Of a DNA stretch of 64,000 bases, positions 82-61,754 are shown piece after piece (positions within the stretch are counted from its first letter, which is position 1; every line of letters begins with the position of its first letter). This DNA is from Bacillota bacterium (GTDB lineage: Bacteria > Bacillota > Clostridia > Acetivibrionales > JAMNXU01). The DNA lies in the NCBI GenBank assembly GCA_023623175.1, contig JAMNXU010000022.1:4181-68180 (forward strand), given 5' to 3'. Made by a program: the position numbers and the translations under genes. The notes beneath the pieces were generated by a model. That model ran no database searches. It was not told the origin of the DNA and saw only the letters and a program-made list of their open reading frames with translations.

Positions 82-1122
82 CTAGCTGGCATGGGAAACA
101 AGATCCTTTGCATACCTGAATGTTTCCGCGAACAATATCATGTAAATTGTATATATTTGCTCCGCTTTATACCGATTTTCAATATCCAGTCCCTGATTGG
201 ATTCATATGTAATGCTTACTTCTCCGTTAATATGCGAGCAGGCGGACACTAAATTAAAGGACTGGGGGGGATAAGCGCCGTTGTCGGCCTTTTCTTCACA
301 GACTTCAAACAGCTCGCCACAGCCTTTGTCTTCGGCAGCCTTTTTTACCCTCAGAGCCAGCTCGTAAATTCTCTTGTTCAAATGTTCCGGCACATAGTTG
401 GTTTGCAGGAATTTAGAAGTAGTATTGGCACCGCCGTGCAGATGGAGGGTCACGTCGGGCACCCGCTCGTCGCACAGCTTCAATAGCGCTTTTGTTTCTT
501 CTGCCATTGGGAAAAAGAAGTTGTCGTGCATGAGGTTTACACCGTCATCATTAAAATAACTTCCAAGGAAATCAACATAATCCTTGATTGGATGCTTTGC
601 CTTGCAATCAGGCCATTCGCAAAGGGAGCCGTCCTTCCAGGTTCCCTGGCTGTAATATCGGAAGGTTTTATAATCTTTGCCCAAAAATGAGTCAAAGGGA
701 ACCCTGGCTCTGCCGTCGACGTTCAGGCAGGGTATTAAAAGAAGATTTATACCCCTGGCTGCATCCAGTATATCGTGATTTTCATTGCCGGCCAGATCCT
801 TTCCCGTTTCTAAAAGGCTGATCAGATTGAGGATTGCAACGGTCCCTTCAAACTCTCCGCCATGAATTGCTCCAACCAGCAAAACCGTCGGGATATAACC
901 CGGTGTGGACTTGTCTGCGTAGTATTTTGGGTTCAGGGCGCCGGCAGCAGAACTGTAGTTGGCATTATGCCGGATATAGTTTCTATTGCCGTATTCAATT
1001 AGATAGATGTTGCGTTTGCCTGCAGACCGGCATAGTATCTCCGCTTTTCCTCTCTGCAGGGTTCTTACTGCATTTTCAATATCATGCAGGCTTCCTTTCC
1101 AAAAAACCGGCGTGCTCATCAT
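82..1122 (-). CDS. M14-type zinc carboxypeptidase-like protein
   Basis: 346-aa ORF. It has an HxxE zinc motif (AIHGGEFEG), then LNVDGR, and a later HLHGG, as in M14 or succinylglutamate-desuccinylase-type metallopeptidases. Assigned from motifs only. Confidence 0.55.
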   Translation of the reverse strand: MMSTPVFWKGSLHDIENAVRTLQRGKAEILCRSAGKRNIYLIEYGNRNYIRHNANYSSAAGALNPKYYADKSTPGYIPTVLLVGAIHGGEFEGTVAILNLISLLETGKDLAGNENHDILDAARGINLLLIPCLNVDGRARVPFDSFLGKDYKTFRYYSQGTWKDGSLCEWPDCKAKHPIKDYVDFLGSYFNDDGVNLMHDNFFFPMAEETKALLKLCDERVPDVTLHLHGGANTTSKFLQTNYVPEHLNKRIYELALRVKKAAEDKGCGELFEVCEEKADNGAYPPQSFNLVSACSHINGEVSITYESNQGLDIENRYKAEQIYTIYMILFAETFRYAKDLVSHAS

Positions 1123-1718
1123 GCCCTCTCCTTTTTCGAATGATGAAAGGGTTGTGTACTGCTGAACAACTATATTTTGACAAACAATGCTCTTTAATTA
1201 TTACCGGATTTTTCTTTAACAGATATTCTAACATATTACTTAAACCCGACACCATATTTTATATGGAAAAATTGCTTAATTTCCTTTAATGCTCTTCTCT
1301 ATTTTACCTGGCGGACAAACTCAGTGTAAGTGACAAGCCTGTTATCCTGAAGGAAATGCCGAGGCAAGATTTAAGCAGGAGCCGTTTGCTGATTTTTATT
1401 GTAGCCGGCAATGTAAATCTTATTAGCAAATTCTATAACAAATCTTAAACATTAATCCTAAATATAAATTCTAAATACAAATTTTAAATAAAATTTAAAT
1501 AAATCATGTTAATATATGAATGTGGGATGATTAAGTGAAAAAATATTCCTTAATGAAACAAAGAAATTGACTCGATTGATCTGAAATGTCTCGTTGTCTG
1601 CACGGGAGTAATGGCTGCCGGAGTAGCAGAATTATTCCGGGCTAATGCAGTCCTGTTCCTGCACGGATGAAAATATTGGATGGAGTATGAATGAATAAAC
1701 CTGCCAGGGAGGCACGGT

Positions 1719-2213
1719 ATGATCAGGGAAATATTGAAACTGGGCAATCCCGAATTGTACGAAAAAAGCGTTGAAGTTACAGATGCGGATATTCCGCTTC
1801 TTGATTCGTGGATTACTGATTTGCATGATACGCTTTTGGACTACAGAAAACGGTATGGCGCGGGCAGGGCGATAGCAGCTCCTCAAATAGGTGTTAAAAA
1901 GCGCCTTGTATATATGCTAACCGACAAGCAGTATGTTTTTATCAATCCCGTACTGGAGTTTCCCGATGATGAAATGTACGAGGTTCTCGATGACTGTATG
2001 TCCTTTCCGGGGTTATGTGTCAGGGTTATGCGTTATAAACGCGCGATAATACGGTACAAAGACAGGGATATGAAACCTCAAAGCATGTTTTTGGAAGGAG
2101 ATTATTCGGAACTGCTTCAGCATGAATGTGACCACCTCGATGGAATATTGGCCACAATGAGGGCTGTCGACAACAAGGCCTTTATAATGATGGAGATGAA
2201 AAGGCAATTTTAG
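1719..2213 (+). CDS. def: peptide deformylase
   Basis: 164 aa with the three deformylase motifs: AAPQIGV, a CMSFPG variant of EGCLS, and HECDHLDG. An AGGGAGG RBS lies 6 nt upstream of the ATG. Confidence 0.9.
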   Translation: MIREILKLGNPELYEKSVEVTDADIPLLDSWITDLHDTLLDYRKRYGAGRAIAAPQIGVKKRLVYMLTDKQYVFINPVLEFPDDEMYEVLDDCMSFPGLCVRVMRYKRAIIRYKDRDMKPQSMFLEGDYSELLQHECDHLDGILATMRAVDNKAFIMMEMKRQF

Positions 2214-2228
2214 TTAGAGAGCTGTTTT

Positions 2229-2459
2229 ATGTCCCGTGAACTGGGGTAAAAACCGTCTGCGTGTTTCAGGTATGTCGGCATGTCCGTGCGAATCCGGACA
2301 AATGAACTATACCCGTGTCCCTGCCGGAATGTTCATGTAAGTTGGGACAAGAGAACCGTCCCCGTGTCCCGGTTGGGACAAGAGAACCGTCCCCGTGTCC
2401 CGGTTGGGACAAGAGAACCGTCCCCCTGTCCCGGGAGAGACGTCCCCGTGTACCGGGGG
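2229..2459. repeat. cluster of the dispersed 27-nt palindromic repeat (three tandem 31-bp periods plus degenerate copies)
   Basis: GGGACAAGAGAACCGTCCCCGTGTCCC occurs at 2344-2370 and 2375-2401, and at 2406-2432 with one mismatch. Degenerate copies flank these. The cluster lies between the convergent def and cupin genes. Confidence 0.9.
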
Positions 2460-3050
2460 CTAATGCTCGGCGGCTTCGGCGTCGGCTTTTGTTGCGTGGA
2501 CGGTGCCGAAGGGATGTTGAGGCGGAGCATATATGGAATATAGCTTCAGCGGCCTGTTGCCCGTGTTGATCAGGTTATGCCATTTGCCCGCGGGAATAAC
2601 GATTATGAAGCCGTCGCGGACCATGGCCTGAAAATCCAGCTTGTCTTTTGAATCGCCCATCCTGACAAGTCCCTGTCCTTCCTCGATGCGAATGAATTGA
2701 TCGAGGTTCGGGTGAACTTCCAGGCCGATATCTTCTCCGACTTTGAGGCTCATCAGTGTGACCTGCAGATGTTTTCCTGTCCACAGGGCAAGCCGGAAGT
2801 TGTCGTTTTCTTCAGTGGCATCCTCAATATTGACGACGAACGGGTTGGGACCATAATCTCTTAATATTATTGGATTATTGGTTTTAAAATGTTGCATATG
2901 TGGTAGATATTGGTCAGGCATCCGATTATATAAATCTGCATTAACAATTGAATAATCAACCAGGAAGGGACACCGGAAAGAGCTATATAAACTATGCAAC
3001 GGGATATTGACGCTGTAAGGATACTGGTACATATATGCAGTATTGTTCAT
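2460..3050 (-). CDS. cupin domain protein
   Basis: The C-terminal cupin core includes GEDIGLEVHP, RIEEGQG and IPAGKWHNLINTG. I prefer the start at 3050 (MNNTAY) because GAAAGGA lies 8 nt upstream. The ORF track extends to 3116. Confidence 0.6.
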   Translation of the reverse strand: MNNTAYMYQYPYSVNIPLHSLYSSFRCPFLVDYSIVNADLYNRMPDQYLPHMQHFKTNNPIILRDYGPNPFVVNIEDATEENDNFRLALWTGKHLQVTLMSLKVGEDIGLEVHPNLDQFIRIEEGQGLVRMGDSKDKLDFQAMVRDGFIIVIPAGKWHNLINTGNRPLKLYSIYAPPQHPFGTVHATKADAEAAEH

Positions 3051-3288
3051 GTCTTTCATCCTTTCTGATGAAGCGGTTAATTTGAGGGTTACTTTGAGCA
3101 TGTTGACGAAACCCAATGGCGCTTGGGCGTTCGCATTAATATAATATGCTTTATGTTAAGGGGGTGTTCCATAACTCTATAAACGTGCGTTTAAAGAATT
3201 ATTGAAGAATAACCATTTTTTTGATACAATTCATCTGAAATCGACAATATGTTTACATTAATTTCTTGAAATTAATGGGGTAGGAGAT

Positions 3289-5439
3289 ATGAAAAAGATA
3301 AGCTCAAGAATTATTTTATTGCTCGGAATTCTGTTGTTCTTCGTATGTTCCGGTCTTGGTCTGGTAGCTTACATAACATCCAACAATTCACTGGTTGGCG
3401 TTTTGGAAGAAACCATGCCGAAAGTCGCCGTGGAGGCGTCAACTACCATAGAAGACGGAATACAAAACCACCTAAATACATTAAATATTATAGCATCGCT
3501 GGACAGCATGAAAATACTCAATGAGCCCGGGGCCAATCTTTCCGGCATCAGGGCTGTGTTGTCCAATGAAGCAAAACGGTCCGGTCACAAGCAAATGGTG
3601 ATTGTAAACAGAAACGGAAAGGCGTTGTTTAATGACGGCAAAACCGCGGACCTGAGCAATAATGCCATTTTCACGAGAGTGATGTCGGGCGAGGAATTTG
3701 TCACGGAACCGGCGCTCGATATCGAAGGAACGGATATTGTAATGATATATGCCGTTCCTGTAAGAATTGACGGCAAGATTGCCGGCGCGCTGATGGCTGT
3801 CAGAGACGGTCTCGAGCTCAGCGATTTTGCGGGAAGAATCAAGTTCGGAAAGACCGGGGAAGCCTTTATCATAAATGCACAGGGACGGACTATCGCTCAT
3901 TCAAACAAGGATCTCCTAATGAATATCATAAACGCAGCAAGATCTAAAGCTGCCGATGATGCTGCCGGTACCGGCCCGGCTGACGGGCTGACCTCGGCAA
4001 CCGTTTCATCCTCATCGGCCGATGCCGTATCGTCCGCAACAGTTTCAGGTGACGAAGGCAATGAAGCAGGAGACTCCCAAACGGCAAGCGTGGCCATGAA
4101 GGTCGGATTTGAAGGTTTTGCCGAAGTGCAAAAGCAAATGACCGAGGGAAAAACCGGGTTCGGAGAATATAAATACCACGGCGTTTCCAAGGTTGCGGGA
4201 TTTGCACCGTTTGAAAAGTATGGATGGTCCATTGCGGTTTCCGTTGACAGGAGTGAAATGCTGTCAGGTTTGGACGAACTTCAGAGAGCTTTTATAATAA
4301 TTTCCGCCATGTTCCTGCTCGCAGGACTGGTGGTTGCGTACATCATGGGCAAGGGCATTTCCAGGCCGATTATATATCTTTCGAAAGAATGCAGCGTAAT
4401 GGCCAACGGAGACTTCTCCAGGGTGATGGGAGATAAATACACGAAGAGACGCGATGAAATAGGAGAACTGGCCAGGGCTTTTAATAACATAAATGTAAAT
4501 GTTTCAAGGATAATTCGAAATGTAATTGATGAAACGGGCAGCGTGGTAAAAGCGATTAAGAACGTTGATGACAACATGTTCTCGCTGAATTCCCAGATTG
4601 ATTACATGTCCGGCATAATCGGAAAGCTGTCCTCAAAAATGCAGGAGAATTCGGCAACAGCTGAGGAAATGAACGCAACGACCATGGCAATTGAAGGAGC
4701 CATCGATTCCATTGCCAATGAATCGCAGCACAGCGCCAAAACAGCCGTTGAAGTCAGCAGGAGGGCTGAGGATCTTAAATCCACTGCTGTGGATTCCCAA
4801 AAGAAGGCGCAGGAGATCCGTGCAGATGTGGCGGAAAAACTGAGAAAAGCCATAGAGCAGGCAAAATCCGTTGAAAGGATCCAGGTATTGTCCGATGCAA
4901 TCCTGGCCATAGCGTCAAAGACAAACCTGCTTGCGCTGAACGCTGCTATTGAGGCATCTCACGCCGGAAGCGCGGGCACGGGTTTTGCCGTTGTTGCGTC
5001 AGAAATAAAGAGCCTGGCAGAAAGTTCAAAAGAGACTGTCAATGAGATCCTGGAAGTTACGAAACTGATAACGGAGTCGGTGAAAATTCTTTCCAACAGC
5101 GCTGAGCAGGTCCTGGCATTCCTCGAGGACAGGGTTGTGAAGGATTATGACATGCTCGTTGTTGCCGGAGAGCAATACAATAACGATGCGCAGATGCTCA
5201 GCGAAATGGTGGCAAACTTAAGCGCAACGACGGAAGAATTGTCAGCTGCGATCCAGAACATGGCAAAAGCAATTAACGATGTGGCCGTAGCTTCGGAACA
5301 GGGTGCGATAGAGACTACGGACCTGGCTTCGGAAGCCGAGATTATAGTCAGAAGAACCAGGGAAGTTTTGCAGAAAACCAACGAGGTCAACAGGAGCGCC
5401 GAAAGGCTGATGGAGCTCGTGTCGATATTTAAAGTGTAA
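3289..5439 (+). CDS. methyl-accepting chemotaxis protein (Cache-type sensor, HAMP, MA domain)
   Basis: 716 aa with an N-terminal TM segment, a periplasmic sensor region, a second TM segment, and a HAMP region ([13 protein letters not shown]). It carries the highly conserved signalling hairpin [32 protein letters not shown]. Confidence 0.9.
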
Positions 5440-5464
5440 CAATAAGAGTCGTATTCGATGATGT

Positions 5465-5505
5465 GGCGCGCCGCTTGGTATTATATTGAGCGGCGCGTCG
5501 GTTTC
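5465..5505 (+). terminator. putative terminator hairpin after the MCP gene
   Basis: GGCGCGCCGC (5465-5474) pairs with GCGGCGCGTC (5490-5499), including one G-U pair, around a 15-nt loop. The U tract is weak. Confidence 0.4.
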
Positions 5506-5574
5506 CGGTACGGATGGCCGCTGTTGCGACCCAGGCGTTATAATAGGTCGGTTTCCATTTTAGGGGGGATGGAA

Positions 5575-6276
5575 ATGGAAAAGTGCCTGTTATCAATTGA
5601 TTGGGATTATTTTGTCCGTACGGAAAAAGGCAATTGGGGATCCTTCCTGGAAAACGGCAGCAGCGTCACGGATCTCTGGTACAAAAGGTATATCCAGGAG
5701 AAGATGAAGGGAAAGGACATTCAAAAATCCTTCAAACTGTCGCCTGAATTGAACGTGTTCTGGGAGAAAATCAGCAGATGTTTCAAAATAACAAAAGACT
5801 CAAAGATTTATGTTTCAGATTCCCATGCCCTGTCCTATGATATAGCGAAAAAATATGACCTGAAAACGGTATGCCTTTTTGATTCCCATGCCGACCTCGG
5901 GTACGGCGGACTTTCATCTCTCAATTTCGAGGTCAACTGTTCCAACTGGCTTGGCAAGCTGCTGAAGGAACGCCAGATCAGCGAGGCCTGTATTTTTTAC
6001 AGTGCCCATACGGAAGAAAAACCAGAGTATTTTAAAGCAATGAATGATATTTTCAACATTGGGTATTTCAAATTGGAAAACTTCAATAAAAATTACAGCG
6101 TGCCGGTAATCCATGTGTGCCGGTCCGGCGCGTGGACTCCTCCATGGTTTGATGTTAAATTTATCCAGTTCGTAAAAGCATTGGGGATTCCCGGCGAGAT
6201 CGTCAGCTGTCCTGCACGAAAATGGAACCCATCCTCTCTTAGTTTTTCGGATCAGATTAATTATCTGCTGGCATGA
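5575..6276 (+). CDS. hypothetical protein, possibly arginase/deacetylase-like fold
   Basis: The ORF track starts at 5458, but that start runs through the terminator hairpin. AGGGGGG precedes the ATGs at 5569 and 5575. The SIDWDYF and DSHADLGYGG motifs faintly recall ureohydrolase-fold metal sites. Confidence 0.4.
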   Translation: MEKCLLSIDWDYFVRTEKGNWGSFLENGSSVTDLWYKRYIQEKMKGKDIQKSFKLSPELNVFWEKISRCFKITKDSKIYVSDSHALSYDIAKKYDLKTVCLFDSHADLGYGGLSSLNFEVNCSNWLGKLLKERQISEACIFYSAHTEEKPEYFKAMNDIFNIGYFKLENFNKNYSVPVIHVCRSGAWTPPWFDVKFIQFVKALGIPGEIVSCPARKWNPSSLSFSDQINYLLA

Positions 6277-12970: not shown

Positions 12971-14116
12971 TCATGGCTTGAAACTTTCTATTTCCTCGAG
13001 CATTGCATAAATATTACGGACGGGCGTGCCATGCACAATGGCATTTGAAGGGCCAGCAATGTAATTCAGACCGCCGGACTCTTCGAGCGAGACTCTTGTT
13101 TCGCGCCTGACATCCTCCTCGGTGCCGGTGTGAAGCGTCACGGAACTTATATTGCCAAGCACCACGACATCCGGGTATTTTTCCCTTATTTTTCCCACTG
13201 TCATTCCCGCATCCCGGTCAGCTTCGCAAAAGGCTTTGCATCCGGCTTCCACGAACAGGTAGTCGGCGATGCTCCATATGTTGCCATCTGTGCCGTAGGC
13301 AAAATGTATGCCATATTTGTCGCATTCTTCGACCAGCAACTTTATAGCAGGGGCGACAGCCTTTCTGAAAAAAGCGGGAGAGTAAACGGGCCCCGTGCTT
13401 GTCGCCATGTCGAGACCGTCATTTATCCACCTGTAACCTTTGCTCGCGAGGAACCTGACATGATGAAGACTGCGCTGGACACCGTGCATTATATATTCCG
13501 CCAGCAAATCGGGGATGAGCGCGACAGCCTCAAGCCATATGGCCTTTGTCATGGGAATTCCAACATTAAGGCCGCTTACGATACAAGGGAAATACGGTTC
13601 TGCAAGTTTTTTGAAAGCAAGCTGGTCTGCATAAATTTCTTCCAGTTCATCCTCGGTAACGCTGGTATCGGTTTTTATTACAGCTTTCAATTTTACTTCA
13701 AGCTCGTCAACATCCGAGGGACCCGTGGTGTCTTCGACCACTCCGTAGGTTTGCCTGACGGGATCGTATCTTTTAATAATATGCGGGCCGTTTATGTCTC
13801 CGAAAAGAAGTGTATAATCATCGAGCTTTTTGGTGGGCTTCTGGCTCATTCTCCATGTCTGGCGCACAACATCGGCCTTGAGCATCCGGTTGAGCTCGAT
13901 CGCGTTTTCCCAGTACCTTTTTACAAATTCATCATGGGCGTTTTTTCCGGAAAGCCACGAAAGTTCTTCCTTAAAATGCAGACTGGCTCCCCCGCTGTCC
14001 ACTTCTCTTCCCAAAAGCTCTGATGCCACCGAACATACAATCGAGGGAAAATAAAAAGGCATTTTATCGGGTTTCCTGTTGCTTAAAACTGCTTCGAAAC
14101 GTTCATGGGAATTCAT
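12971..14116 (-). CDS. uroporphyrinogen decarboxylase (URO-D) family protein / methyltransferase-like
   Basis: About 381 aa counted from MNSHERFEAVL at 14116. The sequence looks URO-D/MtaA-like over its whole length. The 96 upstream codons in the ORF track (to 14404) are read-through of the repeat cluster. Confidence 0.6.
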   Translation of the reverse strand: MNSHERFEAVLSNRKPDKMPFYFPSIVCSVASELLGREVDSGGASLHFKEELSWLSGKNAHDEFVKRYWENAIELNRMLKADVVRQTWRMSQKPTKKLDDYTLLFGDINGPHIIKRYDPVRQTYGVVEDTTGPSDVDELEVKLKAVIKTDTSVTEDELEEIYADQLAFKKLAEPYFPCIVSGLNVGIPMTKAIWLEAVALIPDLLAEYIMHGVQRSLHHVRFLASKGYRWINDGLDMATSTGPVYSPAFFRKAVAPAIKLLVEECDKYGIHFAYGTDGNIWSIADYLFVEAGCKAFCEADRDAGMTVGKIREKYPDVVVLGNISSVTLHTGTEEDVRRETRVSLEESGGLNYIAGPSNAIVHGTPVRNIYAMLEEIESFKP

Positions 14117-14184: not shown

Positions 14185-14435
14185 CCGGGACACGGGCGGG
14201 GACACGGGGACGGTTCTCTTGTCCCATCGGCGGGACACGGGGACGGTTCTCTTGTCCCATCGGGATACTTGCCTTGCCGGAAAAGTGGCTGTTTTCCGTT
14301 CTTGGCAGTTTTTCATTCTGGGACAGGGGAACCGTCCCCTTGTCCTTGTGCAGGGACAAAGGAACCGTCCCCGTGTCCCAAAAGGAACCGTCCCCGTATC
14401 CCAAGGAACCGTCCCCGTGTCCCCGCCCGTGTTCC
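14185..14435. repeat. inverted cluster of the dispersed 27-nt repeat (two reverse copies, four forward copies)
   Basis: Reverse copies lie at 14199-14225 and 14232-14258. Forward copies lie at 14320-14345 (variant), 14353-14379, 14384-14402 (partial) and 14405-14424. Confidence 0.9.
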
Positions 14436-14600: not shown

Positions 14601-14981
14601 ATGAAGATACCCGTGGCCTTTTACAGGTGTGAGGTGTGCGGCAAGCTTGTAGCTCTGCTCAAGAGCGGCGGAGGACAGCTTACATGCTGCAACCAGCCAA
14701 TGACAAAGCTTGTTCCAAACACAACGGATGCTTCCACTGAAAAACATGTTCCCGTAGCAACGAGGAAGGACGGAATGATTTACGTCCAGGTTGGATCTGA
14801 ATTGCACCCGATGACGCCCGCGCATTATATTGAATGGATTGCTGTGGTAAGCGAAGACGGCGCCGAAATTATCCCATTGACTCCCGAAGATGAGCCCAAA
14901 GCTGTGTTCCGTGACAGGGAAAACGCTGAAGTGTATGAATATTGTAATCTACACGGATTATGGGTTGCAGAAATCAAGTAA
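14601..14981 (+). CDS. dfx: desulfoferrodoxin (2Fe superoxide reductase)
   Basis: 126 aa. The N-terminal desulforedoxin motif is CEVCG...CC, and the C-terminal SOR domain contains EKHVPV and HPMTPAHYIEWI. A GAAGGGGGA RBS precedes the start. Confidence 0.9.
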   Translation: MKIPVAFYRCEVCGKLVALLKSGGGQLTCCNQPMTKLVPNTTDASTEKHVPVATRKDGMIYVQVGSELHPMTPAHYIEWIAVVSEDGAEIIPLTPEDEPKAVFRDRENAEVYEYCNLHGLWVAEIK

Positions 14982-16753: not shown

Positions 16754-16850
16754 ATGGCCGGCATTCAAACAATCAATAAAACATCAGTGTTGATTTTCTT
16801 ATGATGAAACCTGTACATATAAAAAAATTAAGAAAGTGAGGTCTTACACT

Positions 16851-19280
16851 ATGATTCCCAAAATGAGCAGAAAGGCTTTTTTATCGCTGTTTTTGGCGTT
16901 GGTCCTTAGCTTGACGGTGCTGGTCCCCGGAACGGGCGTATTTGCTGATGAAGGTTCGCCCGGAAGCGTGTCTCCTTTTGCCGGCGGCTCGGGTACGGAA
17001 GAAGATCCGTACCTGATAGAAAATGCCGAACAGCTGGATGAAGTGAGAAACTATCTTGATTCGCATTTTCTGCTTACCGGTGATATTGACCTTACTGCCT
17101 ACCTGTCAAAGGACGGCAAGGGATATAACAACGGTGCCGGATGGCAGCCTATCGGGACTGAAGAGCAACCTTTCCTGGGCAGTTTTTACAGTGCGGGATC
17201 CGTAATTAAAGGCCTTTACATAAACCGCGGTGACGAAGACTACGTAGGTTTGTTTGGTTACCTGGGTCCTGGTGCTATTGTGTCTGTATGGCTGGAAAAT
17301 GTGGATGTAACTGGAAGAAACAAAGTCGGCGCATTGGCGGGAGCAAACTACGGGGTGATAATTGAAAGCTATGCAACCGGCTCAGTTACGGGCAATGAAG
17401 ATGTGGGCGGACTCGTGGGGCACAATGTTGAATCCCTCATGGATTCTTACACTGATTGTACCACCGTGGGGAACAAAAGTGTCGGAGGCCTGGTCGGAAG
17501 AAACAGCGATTATGTTGCCGACTGTTATGCCAGGGGAACCACGAAGGGCACGAGTTGTGTCGGCGGACTGATAGGTACCCACGAAGATGAATTATATTAC
17601 AGCTATGCTGTTGGACCCGTAAGCGGAAACAGTGACACCGGGGGACTGGTAGGGCTTTTCGATGGCTATATTGTATTTAAAAGCTATTATGACAAAGATA
17701 CCACCGGTCAGTCGGACACCGGCAAAGGCGAACCCAGGAGCACCGAGGAGCTGAAATTCCGCGCAAATTACGAAAGATGGGGATTTGCACATATATGGAC
17801 AATAACCGACGGTGAAACCTATCCGATATTGCGCTGGCAGGAAGGAGCTCCCATGGGCGGTTTCGGCGTAATGATTCCGAGCGGCGCGGCGCAGCCGGGG
17901 GTACAGTGTATTTTAAAAATTCTTTACGCCATGGATGAATACGGCACCACACGAAACGATTCTGCAGAAGTTACCGTGTATAATGAAACCGACGGAGAAG
18001 TTCTTTTCCAGTCGGAAGCAGAATTCAGGGACGGAGAAGCGGATGTGCCGTTTGTACTGAATAATACCGGGACTTATGTGTTGCGTGTCAATGTTGAGGG
18101 TGTAACCTATTCTTCAAAAATCTTGGTAGAGGTTGTAAAACCGGTATTTGCAGGTGGCAGCGGCACGGCCGAAGACCCGTACCTGATAGCTGACGCAATC
18201 CACCTGGATAATGTCAGGTACTGCCTTAATGCTCATTTCAGGCTGATAAGCGATATTGATCTGAATGTTGCTCCCTACAACGAAGGAAAGGGCTGGAAAC
18301 CAATCGGAGGTTATCCCTATGTATTCAGCGGGCAGTTTGATGGCAACGGGAAGACAATAAGGGGTCTTTATATTAACCGCCCCGGAGAAGATGATGTTGG
18401 TTTGTTTGGGATAATCTGGGGTAACTCTGTTTTGAAAAATATCAGGCTTGAAAATGTGAATGTAACAGGTGAACACTATGTAGCCGGGCTGGTCGGCAGT
18501 ACCAATTACGACACTGAAATTGCAAACTGCTACGTATCAGGCATCATTACTGCCAGGACCGATGCCGGGGGTATTGCCGGCGAAAACTTGGGTAGTATTG
18601 TTAACAGCCATTCTTCATGCAAAGTTGTCGCTGAAAGATATGTAGGAAGCCTGGCAGGCTGGCACACGAGCGGTGAAATAAGGAACTGCTCCGCCACAGG
18701 CGATGTAACCGGCAATGATGTTGTCGGAGGCCTGGTCGGAGGCAATGACGGTTATATTTACCAGTCTTATGCAACGGGAACGGTTACCGGTAAAACCGGC
18801 GACAGTATCGGTGGCCTTTCAGGCGATAATTTCGGGGTAATTGCCGAATGCTATGCCACCGGCAATGTTGAAGGCATTGAAAGTGTCGGAGGACTTGTAG
18901 GGTATAATTTCGGGGAAGTGCTCAGGTGCTATGCACTGGGATCCGTCAACGGCAAAGAGATGGTCGGCGGTGTGGTCGGATACAACGAGAGTGGAATCGT
19001 CAACACGACCTTTGCCGCCGGAAGAGTCAGCGGAATTGAAAATATTGGCGGAATCGTGGGACTGAATGAAGGCGGAGCAGTCAAAAAATCCTACTATGAC
19101 AGCCAGACCACGGGTCGCTCCTTTAGTGAAAACAGGGACGGCATTCCCAAAGCATCCGCTGAGATGAAGAAAAAAGATACGTTCTATGCCTGGGATTTTG
19201 ATACGGTTTGGGATATTGCCGAGTCACAAACCTATCCTTTCTTCAGGTGGCGCAATGAATTGAATGCAGGTTCCAAATAA
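16851..19280 (+). CDS. secreted GLUG-motif repeat protein (internally duplicated)
   Basis: It has a signal peptide (MIPKMSRKAFLSLFLALVLSL) and more than 20 repeats of VGGLVG / GGLVG type. Two homologous halves each begin with FAGGSGT-EDPYLI. Confidence 0.7.
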   Translation: MIPKMSRKAFLSLFLALVLSLTVLVPGTGVFADEGSPGSVSPFAGGSGTEEDPYLIENAEQLDEVRNYLDSHFLLTGDIDLTAYLSKDGKGYNNGAGWQPIGTEEQPFLGSFYSAGSVIKGLYINRGDEDYVGLFGYLGPGAIVSVWLENVDVTGRNKVGALAGANYGVIIESYATGSVTGNEDVGGLVGHNVESLMDSYTDCTTVGNKSVGGLVGRNSDYVADCYARGTTKGTSCVGGLIGTHEDELYYSYAVGPVSGNSDTGGLVGLFDGYIVFKSYYDKDTTGQSDTGKGEPRSTEELKFRANYERWGFAHIWTITDGETYPILRWQEGAPMGGFGVMIPSGAAQPGVQCILKILYAMDEYGTTRNDSAEVTVYNETDGEVLFQSEAEFRDGEADVPFVLNNTGTYVLRVNVEGVTYSSKILVEVVKPVFAGGSGTAEDPYLIADAIHLDNVRYCLNAHFRLISDIDLNVAPYNEGKGWKPIGGYPYVFSGQFDGNGKTIRGLYINRPGEDDVGLFGIIWGNSVLKNIRLENVNVTGEHYVAGLVGSTNYDTEIANCYVSGIITARTDAGGIAGENLGSIVNSHSSCKVVAERYVGSLAGWHTSGEIRNCSATGDVTGNDVVGGLVGGNDGYIYQSYATGTVTGKTGDSIGGLSGDNFGVIAECYATGNVEGIESVGGLVGYNFGEVLRCYALGSVNGKEMVGGVVGYNESGIVNTTFAAGRVSGIENIGGIVGLNEGGAVKKSYYDSQTTGRSFSENRDGIPKASAEMKKKDTFYAWDFDTVWDIAESQTYPFFRWRNELNAGSK

Positions 19281-19380: not shown

Positions 19381-20076
19381 TCCGGCAATAATTTAATGAA
19401 AACGGGAAACTTGAAAGGGCGCAGAAAATTGTGATAACATAAACATATAAATCTTTATTAAATTATGAATGAAATTTCAGATAAACACTTAATTCAGAAA
19501 GTATTTAAATTATCAAACAAACCCGTAATTCAGAAAGCATTCAAATAAATATTCAAATAAAAATATCCGGACAAAACATATCCGGATACATTATCCGATA
19601 CAGTATTAATTTAACTTGAATCGAACATTCAAATTTGATACCTAAGTTAAATATAAATATATAATATTTTTGCAGAAAATAGCATAAAACATAAACCTCA
19701 AAATAAAAAACACAACAAACTTAATAATACAATAATCACAAAACAAATCAGAACATTAAGCAAAACTCCCGCATGCAACATCCCGATGCAGTATTCAGTC
19801 ATTTAACCCATTATAATTTGAGCAAAGGCATTTCAAGGAAAAAGCATGTTTTTCGATTCAATGCGCAATATTATTTCCGGAAAACAATCTTCTCATTTTG
19901 GGAGATATTTTTGGATAAAATAAGCAATTAAGGGCTAAATAATTAAATGATAAATTAAAATTTACGGAATATAATGCCTGATTTTAAGAAAGTGCCATGC
20001 CCGTTCAGATAATGTAATCGCCTGAATGATTGATAGTTTTGACCTAAATTAATCTTTTACAAGGATGTGAAGAAAT

Positions 20077-22182: not shown

Positions 22183-22308
22183 AAGTTTGGCCTCCTGTAA
22201 ACAGAATTTGGTTTCAAGTTTGTCTTTCAGTGAATGAATTAATATGCTGCAAGTATATTGCAATATTTTAACTGCATATATCAGCTGCATATTTTAATTT
22301 TATACCTT

Positions 22309-22377
22309 AATTCAATATCAATACCAAACATAATTCAATATCAATACTAAACATAATCCAATATCAATATTAAACGT
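22309..22377. repeat. three tandem 23-bp AT-rich repeats
   Basis: AATTCAATATCAATACCAAACAT occurs at 22309-22331, 22332-22354 and 22355-22377, with 1 to 4 substitutions between copies. Confidence 0.85.
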
Positions 22378-25999: not shown

Positions 26000-26112
26000 A
26001 TCATCGCCCCGCCATGTTTTTTCCATTGATTATACAACACAAACCGGGCATATTCAATAAAAAAAGTTAATTTTTGTGCATATAACATGTAAAAGTGTTC
26101 CTTTATATTCAT

Positions 26113-26171
26113 TATGAGTTTTTGAGAACTGTCCCCGATTTTTATAAGTTTTTGAGAACCGTCCCCGATTT
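26113..26171. repeat. two direct 29-bp repeats carrying a variant of the dispersed-repeat core (GAGAACNGTCCCCGATTT)
   Basis: TATGAGTTTTTGAGAACTGTCCCCGATTT lies at 26113-26141 and TATAAGTTTTTGAGAACCGTCCCCGATTT at 26143-26171. Confidence 0.85.
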
Positions 26172-26198: not shown

Positions 26199-26258
26199 AT
26201 TATTAGTGCTCAATGGTAGTGAGTGCTAATAAAACAAATTAAAGGGAGGGATTATTAC

Positions 26259-26852
26259 ATGGTTGCCGTGTTGAATGCAATGGAAAGGAAGGAGAGCTCA
26301 AAGAAGGCCAGGAAAAAAGGCTTTGTTACCTGCAATGTTTATGGTCCGGGCGTTGAGCGCAATATGGATCTCCAGATCGACAACAGGGAAGTAAACAAGT
26401 TTTTGAAGGGCCATTCCGTGGGAGCGAAAACAAAGCTGAAAGTCAATGGCAACGAGCTTCTTTGCATTGTTAAGGAAATACAGTACGGGCCGGTAAACAG
26501 GAATCCCTTACATATCGACTTTTACACTTCGTCCCAGGACGAAGTCGTCAGGATCAGGGTTCCCTTGCTGTACAAGGAAAGGGAACAGCTTGCAAGGGAA
26601 AATCTTGTGCTGAACATCCTCGAGGATGAAATTGAAATCCAGGGAACTTTGGGTGTTTTGCCCGAATTCATTGAAATAAATGTTTCAAAGATGAAAGAGA
26701 AAAGCACCATTACAGTGGGGGATATAAATTTGCCTGAAGGCGTCAGGGTTTTGTCCGACAGGGATGAAGTGGTGGCCCGTATAGTGAGAGCAGGTGCTGA
26801 ATCCGATGAAACTGAATCCGGGGAAGAGACCGAACCCGGGGAGGAAGAATAA
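26259..26852 (+). CDS. rplY: 50S ribosomal protein L25 / general stress protein Ctc
   Basis: The start at 26259 has an AAAGGGAGGG RBS. It has an L25 N-terminal domain (RKKGFVTCNVYG, PLHIDF), a Ctc-type C-terminal domain and an acidic tail. Confidence 0.8.
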   Translation: MVAVLNAMERKESSKKARKKGFVTCNVYGPGVERNMDLQIDNREVNKFLKGHSVGAKTKLKVNGNELLCIVKEIQYGPVNRNPLHIDFYTSSQDEVVRIRVPLLYKEREQLARENLVLNILEDEIEIQGTLGVLPEFIEINVSKMKEKSTITVGDINLPEGVRVLSDRDEVVARIVRAGAESDETESGEETEPGEEE

Positions 26853-38876: not shown

Positions 38877-39397
38877 TCAGGATTTTCCGAAAAAGATACA
38901 GAAGGCGAAAGAAGGTCAGATTTGGCAACCTGCAGCATATAGGGACCGTCTGCGTTGCAGTGGTAATAGCCTGTGCGCTGCTCGGAGTTGCCTATGCCGT
39001 GTGGAACCAGTCCTTCGACATTTTCAGTTCAATAAGCACGGGCAATATCAGCATTGCCATAAGGGATATAAATGTCGAAAGTTCAGATGATTACGAAACA
39101 TTTTCGTTTAATCCGATAAGGCAGGGAAATGTTGTAAGGGATGTGGAAATTAACGTGGTGACCGAATCAAATCCTTTCAACATGATCCTTGTTTTTACTG
39201 TCGAAAACAACGGAACCGTACCCGTGGTCTGCGAGGGAATCGACAACAGCGCAGGAAATGAGGTTGATGTTTTGCTTCTCGAGGCTCCGGCGAAAATTGA
39301 GCCGGGGCAAACGGGCAGCATCAGGGTGAAGCTTGCCAGGGGTTATTGTGCAGACTTTGAGTTCAGTTCCTTTGTTCGTTTCAAGCAGGCCACATAG
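38873..39397 (+). CDS. TasA-like secreted protein, paralogue 3 (short)
   Basis: An ATGA overlap with paralogue 2 suggests coupling. It has a basic N-terminus followed by CALLGVAYAVWNQSF, and the STGNISIAI, FTVENNGTVPV and IEPGQTGSIRVKL motifs. Confidence 0.55.
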   Translation: MIRIFRKRYRRRKKVRFGNLQHIGTVCVAVVIACALLGVAYAVWNQSFDIFSSISTGNISIAIRDINVESSDDYETFSFNPIRQGNVVRDVEINVVTESNPFNMILVFTVENNGTVPVVCEGIDNSAGNEVDVLLLEAPAKIEPGQTGSIRVKLARGYCADFEFSSFVRFKQAT

Positions 39398-40775: not shown

Positions 40776-42440
40776 ATGGATATGGGACAAGTTAATACGC
40801 TTTTATCAATGCAGTACGGCAGAAAATTAAAGATAATTGATTGGTTTTGGGGTAATGAATCGGTGAGAAGTTATTCGGGTGCATTTTTTATACCATGTGT
40901 TTTTAATACTGCTGTTGGGGCATTTGTTTGGACCGCTGATGCAGGATCCTGGGTCGTCTTATTTTTACTCCTGTTTTTTGCCCTGTTGAGCATTGCACTG
41001 TTTGCAGCTCTGATTCGGTTGAAGGACAGGAAAAAGGAAACTGAAACACTCAACGATTTGCTTACCGGCATGCTCAATTCCATTAATGATGGCGTTATGG
41101 TCGTCAATCCTGAAGGTAAAGTGACCATGCTGAACAGGGCCGGGGAAATTCTGACGGGCAGGACGGCAGAACTTGCTCTGGGTATGCATTACAGGGATGT
41201 TTTTGTTTTAAGATCTGAAACTGGCGACGACGATGTGGAGGACCCGGTCGAAAAGGTATTTAAGACGAATAAGAGTCAGAAATTGGAATCGAGCGCCGTC
41301 CTGGTTTCCGCACACGGGAAGAGGTATGATATTGAGGCCGATGCCGCGCCGATCGGGGACAATAAGAGCAGTAACGCAGGTGTTGTGCTTGTTTTCAGGG
41401 ATATAACCGAAAAGAAAGAGCAGGACAGGAGAATAGAGTATTTAAGTCAGCACGATTCCTTAACAGGCCTCTACAACCGCATGTTTTTTGAAAAGGAAAT
41501 CAAAAGGCTCGATAACGAGTCCAATCTTCCCATTTCAATAATAGTTGGCGATGTAAACGGATTGAAGCTTACAAACGACATCTTTGGACATGATGCCGGC
41601 GATCAGCTTCTGGTTATGGCGGCGGAAGTATTTAAAAAGGTCTGCAGACCCGGGGATATAGTCGCGCGCGTAGGGGGAGACGAATTTTATATTCTGCTGC
41701 CCGGGACCGATGGGAGCGAGGCAATGAAATTAATATCGAAAATGAAGCAACGGTTTTCAAAAAGAGTAGTCAGAGCGGTCAGGGGCAGCATATCCATGGG
41801 TTGCGCCACTAAAACCTCTGCAGGGGAAGACATCATCCAGGTGATGAAAGACGCCGAAAGAATGATGTACATGGCAAAAACCCTTGACAGGGAAGATGTA
41901 AAGAGATCCACGTTTAAGAATATTCTGGAAATTTTTCATAAGAACAGTCCCCAGGAAAAAGAGCATGCGAAAAATGTCAGCATGATCTGCGAAAAGATCG
42001 GAAAAGCTATGGGACTGTCGCAGGGTGAATTGAAAAGGCTCAGGGAAGCCGCGATGTTCCATGACATTGGAAAAGTCATACTGGATGAAAGCCTGCTTGA
42101 CAGGACTGTAAAGCTTACGGGACGTGAAAAGAACGAAATGAAACATCATCCTGTCACTGGCCACAGGATCCTGTATTCCTTTGATAATACCCTGGATTTG
42201 GCTGAGCCGGTTCTCGCGCACCATGAAAGATGGGACGGGAAGGGATTCCCAAAGGGACTTAAAGGGGAGGAGATTCCCAAACTCGCCAGAATCATAGCCG
42301 TTGCCGAAAGCTACGATACGATTTTGAACAGGCTCGGCACTGGCGCAAACACGGAAGAAGCCATCAACATATTAAGGCAGCAGGCCGGAACCAAGCTCGA
42401 TCCCAATATTGTCAACGTGTTTGTAAGCATACTTAACTGA
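40776..42440 (+). CDS. membrane PAS-GGDEF-HD-GYP protein (c-di-GMP synthase/phosphodiesterase)
   Basis: It has two N-terminal TM segments and a PAS region. The GGDEF motif is intact (RVGGDEFYILL), with RPGD placed five residues upstream (an I-site). The HD-GYP part reads FHDIGK...HHERWDGKGFPKGL. Confidence 0.9.
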   Translation: MDMGQVNTLLSMQYGRKLKIIDWFWGNESVRSYSGAFFIPCVFNTAVGAFVWTADAGSWVVLFLLLFFALLSIALFAALIRLKDRKKETETLNDLLTGMLNSINDGVMVVNPEGKVTMLNRAGEILTGRTAELALGMHYRDVFVLRSETGDDDVEDPVEKVFKTNKSQKLESSAVLVSAHGKRYDIEADAAPIGDNKSSNAGVVLVFRDITEKKEQDRRIEYLSQHDSLTGLYNRMFFEKEIKRLDNESNLPISIIVGDVNGLKLTNDIFGHDAGDQLLVMAAEVFKKVCRPGDIVARVGGDEFYILLPGTDGSEAMKLISKMKQRFSKRVVRAVRGSISMGCATKTSAGEDIIQVMKDAERMMYMAKTLDREDVKRSTFKNILEIFHKNSPQEKEHAKNVSMICEKIGKAMGLSQGELKRLREAAMFHDIGKVILDESLLDRTVKLTGREKNEMKHHPVTGHRILYSFDNTLDLAEPVLAHHERWDGKGFPKGLKGEEIPKLARIIAVAESYDTILNRLGTGANTEEAINILRQQAGTKLDPNIVNVFVSILN

Positions 42441-42500: not shown

Positions 42501-42562
42501 GGGACAAGGGAACCGTCCCCGTGTCCCAGCTAATTGGGACAGGAGAACCGTCCCCGTGTCCC
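42501..42562. repeat. two copies of the dispersed 27-nt repeat
   Basis: GGGACAAGGGAACCGTCCCCGTGTCCC lies at 42501-42527 and GGGACAGGAGAACCGTCCCCGTGTCCC at 42536-42562. The second copy ends 1 nt before the LysR stop codon. Confidence 0.9.
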
Positions 42563-42563
42563 G

Positions 42564-43460
42564 CTAACCGTGTACAAGGCCTTCCCTGATCAGTTCTGAA
42601 AATTTCCGGGCGCCGGGAGCCAGCGGTACGCGCTTCATGTAGCAAAGTCCCATATAGCGTTCCGGGATGTTTTCCACGAGTGGCACTTCAAAAATTGTCT
42701 GGGCTTCAAGGGCTTCCAGCGAAAATTCCCTGATCACGCAGGAAATGCCAAGGTTTATTTCCGCGAGCGAAATCAGAAGGTCATGGGAGCCCAGTTCTAT
42801 CTGCGGGGCGAGCAGTATGCCCCTGCTCAGCAGAAACTGTTCCACGTAGCGGCGGGAATTCGCTTTGCGTTCAAGAAATATCAGCGGCAGCTGAGCCAGC
42901 TCCTGGAATGTCAGCGGATGATCGATTTTATCCCTGTACGCAGGACCGGCCACGAATACGTCATGTATGGCCATGCAGGGTTCCGACTGAATTGCCGGAT
43001 CATCAACGGGCAAATTACACAGAGCAATGTCAATCTCGCCGTTCTTCAAAAGTTCGCAAAGTTCAAGCGAAGTTCGGTTCACCAGGTTAAGACTGACATC
43101 GGGGTATAGCTTGTGAAATTTGTCAAGGAAGGGAAGGAGGAACAGCTTGGTGGCTGTATCTCCTACGCCGAGCCTCAGTTCGCCCGACAGGAGGCCCTGC
43201 ATTTCATAAAGTTTTTGTTCGCCGGTTTCAAGGAGATTTATGGCGGTACGAGCATATTCATAAATCAACCTGCCTTCCTGGGTAAGGGACACACCCCTGG
43301 GAGTCCTGTTAAACAACCTTATTCCGAGGGATTTTTCCAGCTGGCTGATGCTCTGGCTTACCGCAGGCTGGGTCATGAACAGAGTATTGGCCGCCCTGGA
43401 TATGCTTCCCGAGTGGGCTACTTCGCAAAAAACCCTGTATGTATCCAATTTAGCGCGCAT
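42564..43460 (-). CDS. LysR family transcriptional regulator
   Basis: The HTH reads FCEVAHSGSISRAANTLFMTQPAVSQSISQLE, followed by a LysR effector domain. An AGGGGAG RBS precedes the start. Confidence 0.85.
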   Translation of the reverse strand: MRAKLDTYRVFCEVAHSGSISRAANTLFMTQPAVSQSISQLEKSLGIRLFNRTPRGVSLTQEGRLIYEYARTAINLLETGEQKLYEMQGLLSGELRLGVGDTATKLFLLPFLDKFHKLYPDVSLNLVNRTSLELCELLKNGEIDIALCNLPVDDPAIQSEPCMAIHDVFVAGPAYRDKIDHPLTFQELAQLPLIFLERKANSRRYVEQFLLSRGILLAPQIELGSHDLLISLAEINLGISCVIREFSLEALEAQTIFEVPLVENIPERYMGLCYMKRVPLAPGARKFSELIREGLVHG

Positions 43461-56102: not shown

Positions 56103-56509
56103 GCAATGCTGCCGGGATTATGTAAGATTATACTGTGTTTTTCTGCAGGATAATACCTGCCCGGGGAATTTCTTAACCGGGGAATTATCTTAAAATGAAA
56201 TATAATATAAAATTTGAACTTATAACAATCTGAATTCAAATGGAACAAAGAAATTATGCCGTACATTGCTCTGCCCGTGGAAATAACCGGATTAATAGGA
56301 AAATAAAAATTTCGACTAAAACTAATTAGAAAATATAAATTTAAATTAAAAATTAAACAAAATTAATCAAAAATATAAATTTGAATTTAAAAAATAAAAC
56401 AAAATTTAATAAATATTCATTGACTTTAACAATTTTCATAAAAATACAAATTTTGAGAAACCAAACACAAAACGGCGTTTCGCCAATGAAAAACAAGGAG
56501 GAAGATAAC

Positions 56510-61249: not shown

Positions 61250-61561
61250 TATTATTATATACCACAATTCGAATTTTTAAACAAGATATTTTTAAAAAAT
61301 TTTTTGAATTCTATAGGGAAACTGTGCGGGAATGTGGAAATGGCGAACAGAAATAAGAAGTATGAGGAGAACCGATGCCGGATTTTAGGTTTGACAATGC
61401 GTGATAAACATTTATTATAGAGTTGTTGGCGTTTGTTTTAACGGAAACATTGCCTGTTAAAGGCATTATTGGTTAAATTGTAGTAGGAGATATTGTGCGC
61501 GGCCGTGAGTTTGATAGGATTAAGCAGTAAATCATTTTACATGAAATAGTAATTTGAAATA

Positions 61562-61754
61562 CATCAGGCCGCAAACTATTTGCATAATCCGTAAATTGAA
61601 GAAACCCAAACTATTTACATTAATCTGTAAATTGAAAAGCATTAACCGCAAACTATTTGCAATAATCCGCAAATTGAAGTGCATCAGGCCGCAAACTATG
61701 TTGCATTAAACCATAAATTGAAATGCATTAAGCCGCAAATTTATTGGACAATCC
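61562..61754. repeat. tandem array of ~40-bp repeats (4.5 units) upstream of the MATE gene
   Basis: The units lie at 61562-61600, 61601-61636, 61637-61678, 61679-61722 and 61723-61754 (partial). Each contains (C)CGCAAACTATTTGC and ends in TAAATTGAA. Confidence 0.85.

Follow-up and report, generated by a model that had tools for sequence, protein, structure and literature searches.

The 64-kb window analyzed here (the whole 64,000-nucleotide stretch, positions 4,181 to 68,180 of contig JAMNXU010000022.1, from a Bacillota bacterium of the Acetivibrionales) carries a family of short, dispersed hairpin repeats in its intergenic DNA. The full unit reads (T)GGGACA-RRR-GAACCGTCCCC-N-TGTCCC(A), with 6-nt arms (GGGACA and TGTCCC) and an 11-nt core, GAACCGTCCCC. 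A preliminary description made from the same sequence had called the unit palindromic, which holds for the complementary 6-nt arms but not for the approximately 15 nt between them, which are asymmetric. It had also listed eight exact sites, on both strands, of an 18-mer, GAACCGTCCCCGTGTCCC; all eight are present, with one coordinate corrected from 14407-14424 to 14406-14423. The copies and their immediate relatives are as follows.

41-89, no single strand: degenerate inverted dimer, with a reverse core at 45-55 (AAACCGTCCCC on the minus strand), a forward core at 67-77 (GAACCGTACCC) and arms GGACA/TGTCC.
2295-2322, plus strand: degenerate full unit GGACAAATGAACTATACCCGTGTCCC, with 3 mismatches in the 18-mer.
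2344-2432, plus strand: three tandem full units with a 31-nt period, each GGGACA-AGA-GAACCGTCCCC-G/C-TGTCCC, with covariance-model E values from 1e-10 to 2e-6.
2433-2459, plus strand: partial unit GGGAGAGACGTCCCCGTGTACC, a remnant truncated on its 5' side.
14187-14258, minus strand: left arm of a composite palindrome, with a partial reiteration GGGACACGGGC and full reverse units at 14199-14225 and 14232-14258 (33-nt period).
14259-14319, no strand: non-repeat spacer of about 60 nt, with the composite's reverse units on its left and its forward units on its right.
14320-14435, plus strand: right arm of the composite palindrome, with full units at 14320-14346 (degenerate) and 14353-14379 and a partial reiteration CGCCCGTGTTCC.
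26112-26171, plus strand: doubtful relative, two 30-nt direct repeats with GAACTGTCCCC and the GAACCGTCCCC loop motif and no arms.
42501-42527 and 42536-42562, plus strand: two full units with a 35-nt period.

The repeat is far more abundant than expected from base composition. Against the eight exact copies of GAACCGTCCCCGTGTCCC, 100 dinucleotide-preserving shuffles of the window gave none; with up to three mismatches allowed there are 13 copies (0.03 expected), and the 11-mer core with at most one mismatch occurs 19 times (0.9 expected). A covariance model trained on units from other genomes and then run on the window returned 10 matches at E < 0.01, which fall in four intergenic loci. Judged by the positions of the open reading frames (ORFs), every confident copy in the window is intergenic, as had been claimed, and the three tandem 31-bp periods were recovered as full units at 2344-2370, 2375-2401 and 2406-2432. 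The degenerate copies proposed earlier stand at 41-82, 2295-2322, 2433-2454, 14320-14346 and 14380-14402, but the one at 26112-26171 is doubtful, and the sequence at 2229-2268 is too degenerate for a unit to be called. One further covariance-model match, at 39199-39235 (E 0.02), is weak, lies in an ORF, lacks the stem and is probably due to chance.

The four loci differ in their gene context. The dimer at 41-89, whose cores carry 1 mismatch and which the covariance model matches at 53-89 (E 0.003), lies directly downstream of ORF 82-1122 on the minus strand. The array at 2344-2432 is situated between the convergent 3' ends of the peptide deformylase gene def (1719-2213, plus strand) and an ORF of unknown gene (2460-3116, minus strand), and the pair at 42501-42562 between those of a PAS-GGDEF gene (40776-42440, plus strand) and a LysR regulator gene (42564-43460, minus strand). 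The composite at 14187-14435 occupies instead a divergent gap, between an MtaA-like gene (start near 14080, minus strand) and a desulfoferrodoxin gene (14601-14981, plus strand). It forms an imperfect palindrome of approximately 250 nt made of two reverse units, the spacer and four forward units, two of which lack the 5' arm (14380-14402 and 14403-14423, with periods of 23 and 21 nt); as single-stranded DNA (ssDNA; 14185-14435) it is predicted to fold with -90.8 kcal/mol (z -12.5). For the window alone, this is an ordinary though abundant repeat family with no evident effect on neighbouring genes.

The unit had been described as a small hairpin, and compensatory changes in the stem support this. 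We aligned 96 distinct units without gaps, of which 94 came from gene-anchored loci, in a register that pairs position -(k+2) with position +k. Paired cells amounted to 69.9%, against 46.8% after shuffling, and the covariation score was 0.608 against 0.213, with none of 500 shuffles reaching the observed value; when the register was slid, the score did not exceed 0.205. Each of the five central pairs is paired in 82-91% of units and is represented by 4-6 standard pair types. Stem pairing is thus under selection. The loop is close to invariant: its eleven columns are 96-100% conserved, except the last, which is C in 85 of the 96 units. The columns that flank the stem vary, and the conserved block is the loop GAACCGTCCCC, not the arms. 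Across genomes the stem measures 5-8 bp, the loop that contains GAACCGTCCCC approximately 13-15 nt and the whole unit 27-37 nt. The arms are lineage-specific and complementary within each unit, as in ACACA/TGTGT, CAATCA/TGATTG, AAGACA/TGTCTT, AGCGCGC/GCGCGCT, GGATCA/TGATCC, GGTGTCAA/TTGACACC and TGAAACGCG/CGCGTTTCA. Between the 5' arm and the core stand three bases that track the base composition of the host (AAA, AGA, GGA, CCG), and the remainder of the unit is constant.

The proposal that the repeat forms a family that extends beyond the window was borne out by a scan of one genome per GTDB species, in which per-genome copy numbers are lower bounds. The exact 18-mer was found in more than 92 loci from several phyla, including Bacillota, Bacteroidota and Actinomycetota, as singles, tandem arrays and inverted dimers; the chance expectation is approximately 17 matches in 596 Gb. 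Hosts include Lachnospiraceae, Oscillospiraceae, Faecalibacterium, Christensenellaceae, Prevotellaceae, Muribaculaceae, Coriobacteriaceae, Armatimonadota, Mesobacillus and Neobacillus, as well as Propionicimonas (at least about 10 loci in one metagenome-assembled genome, MAG) and another Actinomycetes MAG. The class is poorly described, as the preliminary description had said of such elements in Clostridia, but the repeat itself occurs across phyla and is not specific to that group. Single matches in high-GC genomes (Streptomyces L030, Polyangiales L051 and Mycobacteriales L069) lack the 5' arm and were taken as chance. In actinobacterial copies from the Propionicimonas and Actinomycetes MAGs (L007, L027, L034, L035, L055, L062, L063 and L074) an additional conserved block, TGAC(T/A)A(G/C)(G/C)T, stands immediately 5' of GGGACA, and the element is therefore longer in that lineage.

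Units are arranged in recurrent ways. Same-orientation arrays have two kinds of period, one of full units (28-37 nt) and one of head-less units consisting of RR, core and 3' arm (19-23 nt), which follow a single 5' arm; the window contains both kinds. Inverted doublets are very common, and one example, GGGACACGGGGACGGTTCTTTTGTCCCATTTT-loop-AAAATGGGACAAAAGAACCGTCCCCGTGTCCC, folds as a 34-bp hairpin of -44.8 kcal/mol. Inverted core pairs stand 65:5 in favor of the polarity GGGGACGGTTC...GAACCGTCCCC (minus/plus), with a modal spacing of 44-45 nt. Around 85% of copies across loci are intergenic by crude ORF calling, so the repeat does not lie mainly inside genes. Sorted by context, the intergenic copies comprise 42 in tandem, 21 in convergent and 12 in divergent regions, and they show no preferred orientation relative to the neighbouring gene (for the upstream gene, 27+15 on the same strand and 15+27 on the opposite strand). 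Exact 18-mers were also seen deep within long ORFs (L018 near 1695, in ORF 124-3486; L021 near 2528; L033 near 3936), which may be intragenic insertions like those reported for repetitive extragenic palindromes (REPs) and RPEs, or artefacts of ORF calling.

These arrangements bear on the possibility that the units are host elements acting at the RNA level, as hairpins in 3' untranslated regions that terminate transcription or shield mRNAs from 3' exonucleases, any link to a transposase being historical only. In the window, three of the four loci are indeed found at the 3' ends of genes, with convergent genes on either side of two, most copies across loci are in tandem or convergent intergenic regions, and such roles are described as documented for classical REPs (PMC3733652). 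However, no unit is followed by a T-run, and orientation relative to the upstream gene is unbiased; on these two grounds an intrinsic terminator was ruled out. The locus at 14187-14435 and 12 other copies are located in divergent 5' regions, and a generic hairpin role does not explain an 11-nt loop that is invariant across phyla. Mismatches in the stem provide a further indication: G-T and T-G together number 33 and A-C and C-A together 31, so that neither strand is favoured, which fits an element acting as DNA rather than as RNA. Finally, no Rfam family is matched: at gathering thresholds the whole window gave 0 matches, and at E ≤ 10 the locus 14187-14435 gave only generic long-hairpin matches far under the cut-offs. 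We therefore consider an RNA-level role unlikely as the main explanation.

It had been suggested that a RAYT- or IS200-like transposase be sought in the genome, and such a gene was found, although only outside the window. When the ORFs of 92 loci were clustered to look for unit-linked genes, no gene family was generally enriched beside units. However, units directly bracket the gene for a protein of 250-266 aa at three loci, L022 of Faecalibacterium, L024 of Prevotellaceae and L028 of Bacteroidales. The gene is found a fourth time at the margin of L025, also from Prevotellaceae; there the closest core-like match stands approximately 120 nt off and departs from the 18-mer at 4 positions. Read in gene orientation, L022 has a reverse unit about 80 nt before the start codon and a forward unit about 30 nt past the stop, while at L024 and L028 the gene is preceded by a doublet and followed by a forward unit. 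The protein matches Pfam Y1_Tnp (47.6 and 42.2 bits; cut-off 23) and approaches NCBIfam REP_Tyr_transpos (NF047646; 75.5 and 58.4 bits, under the equivalog cut-off of 80). An alignment of 16 members contains the HUH motif GNHIHLL, the class-2 tyrosine motif YIHQNP and WSS, the latter two invariant or nearly so, and a C-terminal SIRQxSRLTG region resembling a helix-turn-helix (HTH). Weak, sub-threshold HTH matches were obtained to HTH_7, HTH_26 and HTH_38 in 6 of the 16 members, to HTH_23 in 4 and to HTH_28 in 1, and none of the 16 matched Bac_DnaA_C.

The protein has a RAYT-like fold. By sequence, the only match in the PDB was 4ER8, E. coli TnpAREP. An AlphaFold model (pLDDT 88.1), in which the C-terminal ~100 aa are confidently predicted as helical, likewise had as its best structural match the 4ER8 complex of RAYT with a REP hairpin (E 7e-8, TM 0.76), followed by the IS608 and ISDra2 TnpA proteins bound to hairpin DNA. 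Profile comparison with hhalign gave E 6e-33 (37% identity) against the TIRYT protein gbm2474 and E 2.5e-7 (18% identity) against E. coli RAYT.

Searching in reverse, from the protein, we identified 6194 homologues at E ≤ 1e-10, several of them named 'REP element-mobilizing transposase RayT'. Many of the genes come from contigs some 1 kb long, which is what assembly breaks at the flanking repeats would produce. Contexts were examined for three genomic loci (L094, L095 and L097) and 80 metagenome loci, approximately 70 of which had enough flank to test. The gene has inverted unit flanks in L094, L095 and L097 as well, and homologues with just 36-58% identity to the query retain GAACCGTCCCC in their flanks. 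Of the 80 metagenome loci, 45 have the 11-mer within 300 nt upstream of the gene and 40 have it downstream, with 34 having it on both sides. Upstream copies are ~87% reverse, typically 50-56 nt before the start codon, and downstream copies are ~90% forward, typically 10-35 nt past the stop. Since the prevailing polarity of the dispersed inverted doublets equals that of these flanks, the doublets resemble the gene cassette minus its gene, and look like miniature versions of it. Stem and protein have diverged together: stem type follows the protein phylogeny, and GGGACA-type stems fall within one clade (L120, L131, L132 and L136).

Two other loci with Y1_Tnp genes are of note. L095 has two such genes on one contig (213-965 and 5250-5498, one of them a fragment), and because the adjacent units differ in stem type (CAATCA and AACACA), two hairpin families coexist in this genome. 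In a relative of the window's host (L183/L184, 87% PFOR identity), PFOR is preceded at a distance of 4 kb by a different Y1_Tnp gene of 304 aa (4882-5796), which has directly oriented AGGGACAGTTAT on its flanks and no GAACCGTCCCC unit within 23 kb. The PFOR of the window itself points to a Clostridia-like anaerobe, its best named matches being [Clostridium] cellulosi (84%) and Ruminiclostridium (83%).

The position of the units around the gene is relevant to a second alternative, in which the 11-mer is a double-stranded operator or iteron for the HTH region of the transposase or for a host regulator and the arms are incidental. The 11-mer is asymmetric and invariant, as such a site could be, and weak C-terminal HTH matches occur in about 6 of the 16 members. 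For many of the transposase genes, the upstream unit covers part of a TTGACA box some 50 nt ahead of the start codon, a speculative sign of autoregulation. In the window, the stem-less 30-nt direct repeats at 26112-26171, TTAT(G/A)AGTTTTTGAGAAC(T/C)GTCCCCGATTT, end in a -35-like TTGACA, with TAGAAT 17 nt further on, and are situated approximately 50 nt upstream of the L25/Ctc gene (26223-26852). No fold was found for them and their covariance-model match is weak (E 0.08); they may represent an operator-like use of the motif, and one could speculate that these stem-less 11-mers reflect duplex binding by the HTH region. On the other hand, compensatory, lineage-variable stems are predicted by intrastrand pairing and not by a duplex site, and hundreds of intergenic copies without gene-class preference are a poor fit to a regulon. 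A duplex site is accordingly improbable as the primary identity of the repeat, but an operator role is compatible, as a secondary function, with the units being sites of the transposase.

The association with the Y1 gene also weighs on a third alternative, that the units are terminal inverted repeats (TIRs) of a miniature inverted-repeat transposable element (MITE) derived from a classical DDE insertion sequence, the Y1 gene being coincidental. The inverted dimers and the 250-nt composite at 14187-14435 do resemble MITEs with inverted ends. Nevertheless, no target-site duplication is visible around units or dimers, the clustering of ORFs from 92 loci revealed no unit-associated DDE transposase, and the motif flanks the gene in 34-45 of 80 independent Y1 loci. 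Nor was the unit found on PLSDB plasmids or IMG/VR viral contigs: the dimer was unmatched in PLSDB, where the protein's catalytic core had only 12 weak matches, and the exact 18-mer was not found in IMG/VR, so that neither collection contains a sign of a plasmid or phage vehicle. We regard this origin as very improbable indeed.

The closest described system is that of the TIRYT genes, which are presented in the 2013 study of Di Nocera, De Gregorio and Rocco (PMC3733652) as RAYT-like genes flanked by terminal inverted repeats rather than by GTAG REPs ('TIRtrons'); according to its account of them, GGGGWSAS is common to many TIRYT repeats, and TIR families of moderate abundance are found as singles, dimers or groups. 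In the classification of Quentin, Siguier, Chandler and Fichant (2018, PMC6006769), TIRYTs form TnpAY1 subclass 2.1, the second largest, with C-terminal HTH-type extensions and a patchy distribution across phyla; RAYT-like Y1 proteins of this subclass were present in ~15% of the strains surveyed, and neither automatic nor manual searches there gave REP-like sequences near the genes. The system described here shares with TIRYTs a Y1 gene placed between inverted repeats at fixed short distances, the dispersal of the repeats as singles, dimers and groups, and the protein signature MPR...AYCLMxNHxH...GxLxQxR...Y---NP...WSS. Its C-terminal extension may be HTH-like and comparable to that of subgroup 2.1.2, with HTH matches that are sub-threshold. 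A motif of the GGGG(A/T)(C/G) type found in TIRs may be represented by GGGGACGG, the reverse reading of the main motif, which agrees with GGGGWSAS at 7 of 8 positions; in the same comparison reiterated copies have GGGGACAC and sister lineages GGGGACAG. Unlike the published TIRs, which are plain, each 'TIR' here is a hairpin whose stem covaries and whose 11-nt loop is invariant, and the hosts are mainly Bacillota, Bacteroidota and Actinomycetota MAGs, whereas the 2013 set came from Proteobacteria and Acidobacteria. The exact sequence does not occur in the text or text supplements of PMC3733652 and PMC6006769, a comparison that did not extend to the published TIR sequences in Figure 9 of Di Nocera.

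Similarities to the REP/BIME/REPIN and RAYT systems of E. coli and Pseudomonas are also evident, namely short extragenic hairpins, their clustering in tandem, long hairpins formed by inverted doublets, a cognate Y1/HUH gene with inverted repeat flanks, co-evolution of protein and repeat, and 4ER8 as the nearest solved structure. However, the foot of the stem lacks GT[AG]G (GTAG/GTGG), the conserved part is the large loop and not the foot and stem, the loop has 13-15 nt as opposed to a few nt in REPs, the protein is only 18% identical to E. coli RAYT, and the unit is common to several phyla where REPs are lineage-specific. Because the GT[AG]G foot is absent, the repeat is on sequence grounds filed as a putative new member of the TIRYT/TIR class and not as a canonical REP. 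The preliminary description had not recognised the family, and the motif is absent from Rfam, from the REP table of Quentin 2018 and, as a string, from the literature searched.

Two other classes were considered. Members of the IS200/IS605 family and PATEs, their gene-less derivatives, have in common with the present system a Y1 HUH enzyme, imperfect hairpins recognised in ssDNA and the lack of target duplication, and IS608 and ISDra2 supply the fold matches to TnpA-hairpin complexes mentioned above. They differ in that TnpA-IS200 has the tyrosine motif Y---Q in place of the class-2 Y---NP, and in that their ends are distinct on the left and right, whereas the flanking hairpins here are identical inverted copies; moreover, at the loci inspected the gene is located in ordinary chromosomal neighbourhoods, and no tnpB was present beside it in the four loci with listed gene calls. 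CGTC-tagged REPs (Di Nocera 2013) are likewise short dispersed hairpins, mostly in head-to-head dimers, and CGTC is present here (GAAC-CGTC-CCC). As characterized in the passages of PMC3733652 that deal with them, those repeats have a stem of 8-9 bp with the tag unpaired at one end, a loop of 4-5 nt and no associated transposase, while here CGTC lies inside the 13-15 nt loop and a transposase gene is associated. CRISPR arrays were rejected as well, since the spacers measure 4-8 nt, the units are dispersed and no cas genes were noted among the ORFs inspected.

Taken together, the units are probably REP/REPIN-like non-autonomous DNA elements, each hairpin serving as the cognate site of a TIRYT-type, RAYT-like Y1/HUH ssDNA transposase. 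The REP/BIME- or MITE-like behaviour proposed in the preliminary description is thereby supported, through identical units that flank a Y1_Tnp gene elsewhere and through covariation of the hairpin. By analogy with E. coli TnpAREP and the TnpA proteins of IS608 and ISDra2, the enzyme would act catalytically on the units by an ssDNA mechanism: it would bind the folded hairpin on transiently single-stranded DNA, read the loop sequence, and then cut and rejoin nearby. Repetition of these steps could, over time, generate the singles, two-period tandem arrays and inverted dimers seen in intergenic DNA, and the family may still be mobile. The cognate TIRYT gene would lie elsewhere in this genome. For TnpAREP, cleavage and strand transfer of folded ssDNA REPs in vitro are described in PMC8266576.

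Several observations weigh against this interpretation. The window encodes no homologue of the transposase (tblastn), so the link to a cognate gene in the window's organism is indirect. Judged by energy, a unit on its own is a weak and unremarkable hairpin (-5.3 kcal/mol, z -0.9); the evidence for structure is the comparison among units and not thermodynamics. At 29 of the 80 homologue loci the core is absent at ≤1 mismatch, and several of these have the variant loops GGGGACGGGGTT, AGGGACGGTCC and GGGGACAGG. A lagging-strand bias is a trait of IS200/IS605-type elements, and copies of the repeat had no orientation bias relative to local GC skew (32 concordant and 30 discordant, the 8-kb skew being a crude proxy for replication direction). 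Relatives of the host (87-88% PFOR identity) are non-syntenic and carry no unit within 14-23 kb, and among the loci compared no site was cleanly empty in one and filled in another. In the search for strain variants, the def product was located on one Logan contig of 903 bp, which stops 3 bp beyond the stop codon, and the LysR product had no record.

Turnover of units is nonetheless visible between related genomes. An orthologous site in two Prevotellaceae MAGs has an inverted doublet in one and a singlet in the other, the 41-nt indel being bounded by TGTCCCA (L031 2595-2672 and L059 7420-7460), and the unit array upstream of the gene differs between contigs that are 99.7% identical. Between L005 (~1700-1735) and L047 (~1645-1676), which are 95% identical, homology and synteny end exactly at a unit without a 5' arm. 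In many genomes, partial reiterations of the 3' part of the unit adjoin full units and start within the loop (GTCCCC..., CCCC...), as at 14187-14206 and 14417-14435 of the window, 366-340 of L022, ~4020-4050 of L031 and ~140-200 of L115. Examples are repeated GTGTCCCCCGTGTCCCC and GTCCCCCTGTGTT, with break points at GAACC^GTCCCC or before CCCC. These break points hint at cleavage within the loop; they may mark the cleavage site, or slippage.

More tentatively, and with somewhat less than even confidence, we suggest that the units could be the DNA substrate so far missing for TnpAY1 subclass 2.1 (the TIRYTs) and a new REP architecture, in which specificity resides in an invariant 11-nt loop, GAACCGTCCCC, carried on a freely covarying stem. 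GAACCGTCCCC is kept from Bacillota to Bacteroidota and Actinomycetota, with sister lineages using GGGGACGGGGTT and GGGGACAGG. Recognition and cleavage centred on the loop, if true, would differ from those of RAYT, which involve GTAG at the stem foot, and of IS608, which involve a guide tetranucleotide. Through this family an orphan class of HUH enzymes gains a concrete candidate substrate, and a defined hairpin of 27-37 nt, together with matched pairs of protein and site from several phyla, makes the class testable in the cleavage and strand-transfer assays used for TnpAREP. In practical terms, the family breaks metagenome assemblies and marks points of rearrangement, and in gut and rumen Clostridia and Bacteroidota it can give rise to long palindromes prone to cruciform formation.

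The window also contains other repeats. Four copies of a repeat of approximately 44 nt, TTTACATGAAATAGTAATTTGAAATACATCAGGCCGCAAACTAT, lie at 61536-61743 with spacings of 78, 42 and 44 nt and are unrelated to the hairpin family. A 23-nt tandem repeat is present in three copies at 22308-22376 and a 36-nt repeat in two copies at 19472-19543, and A/T-rich tracts with a 13-nt period occupy 1435-1511 and 56306-56409. Within the 814-aa ORF at 16836-19280, the segments 17204-17539 and 18356-18781 form an internal duplication.

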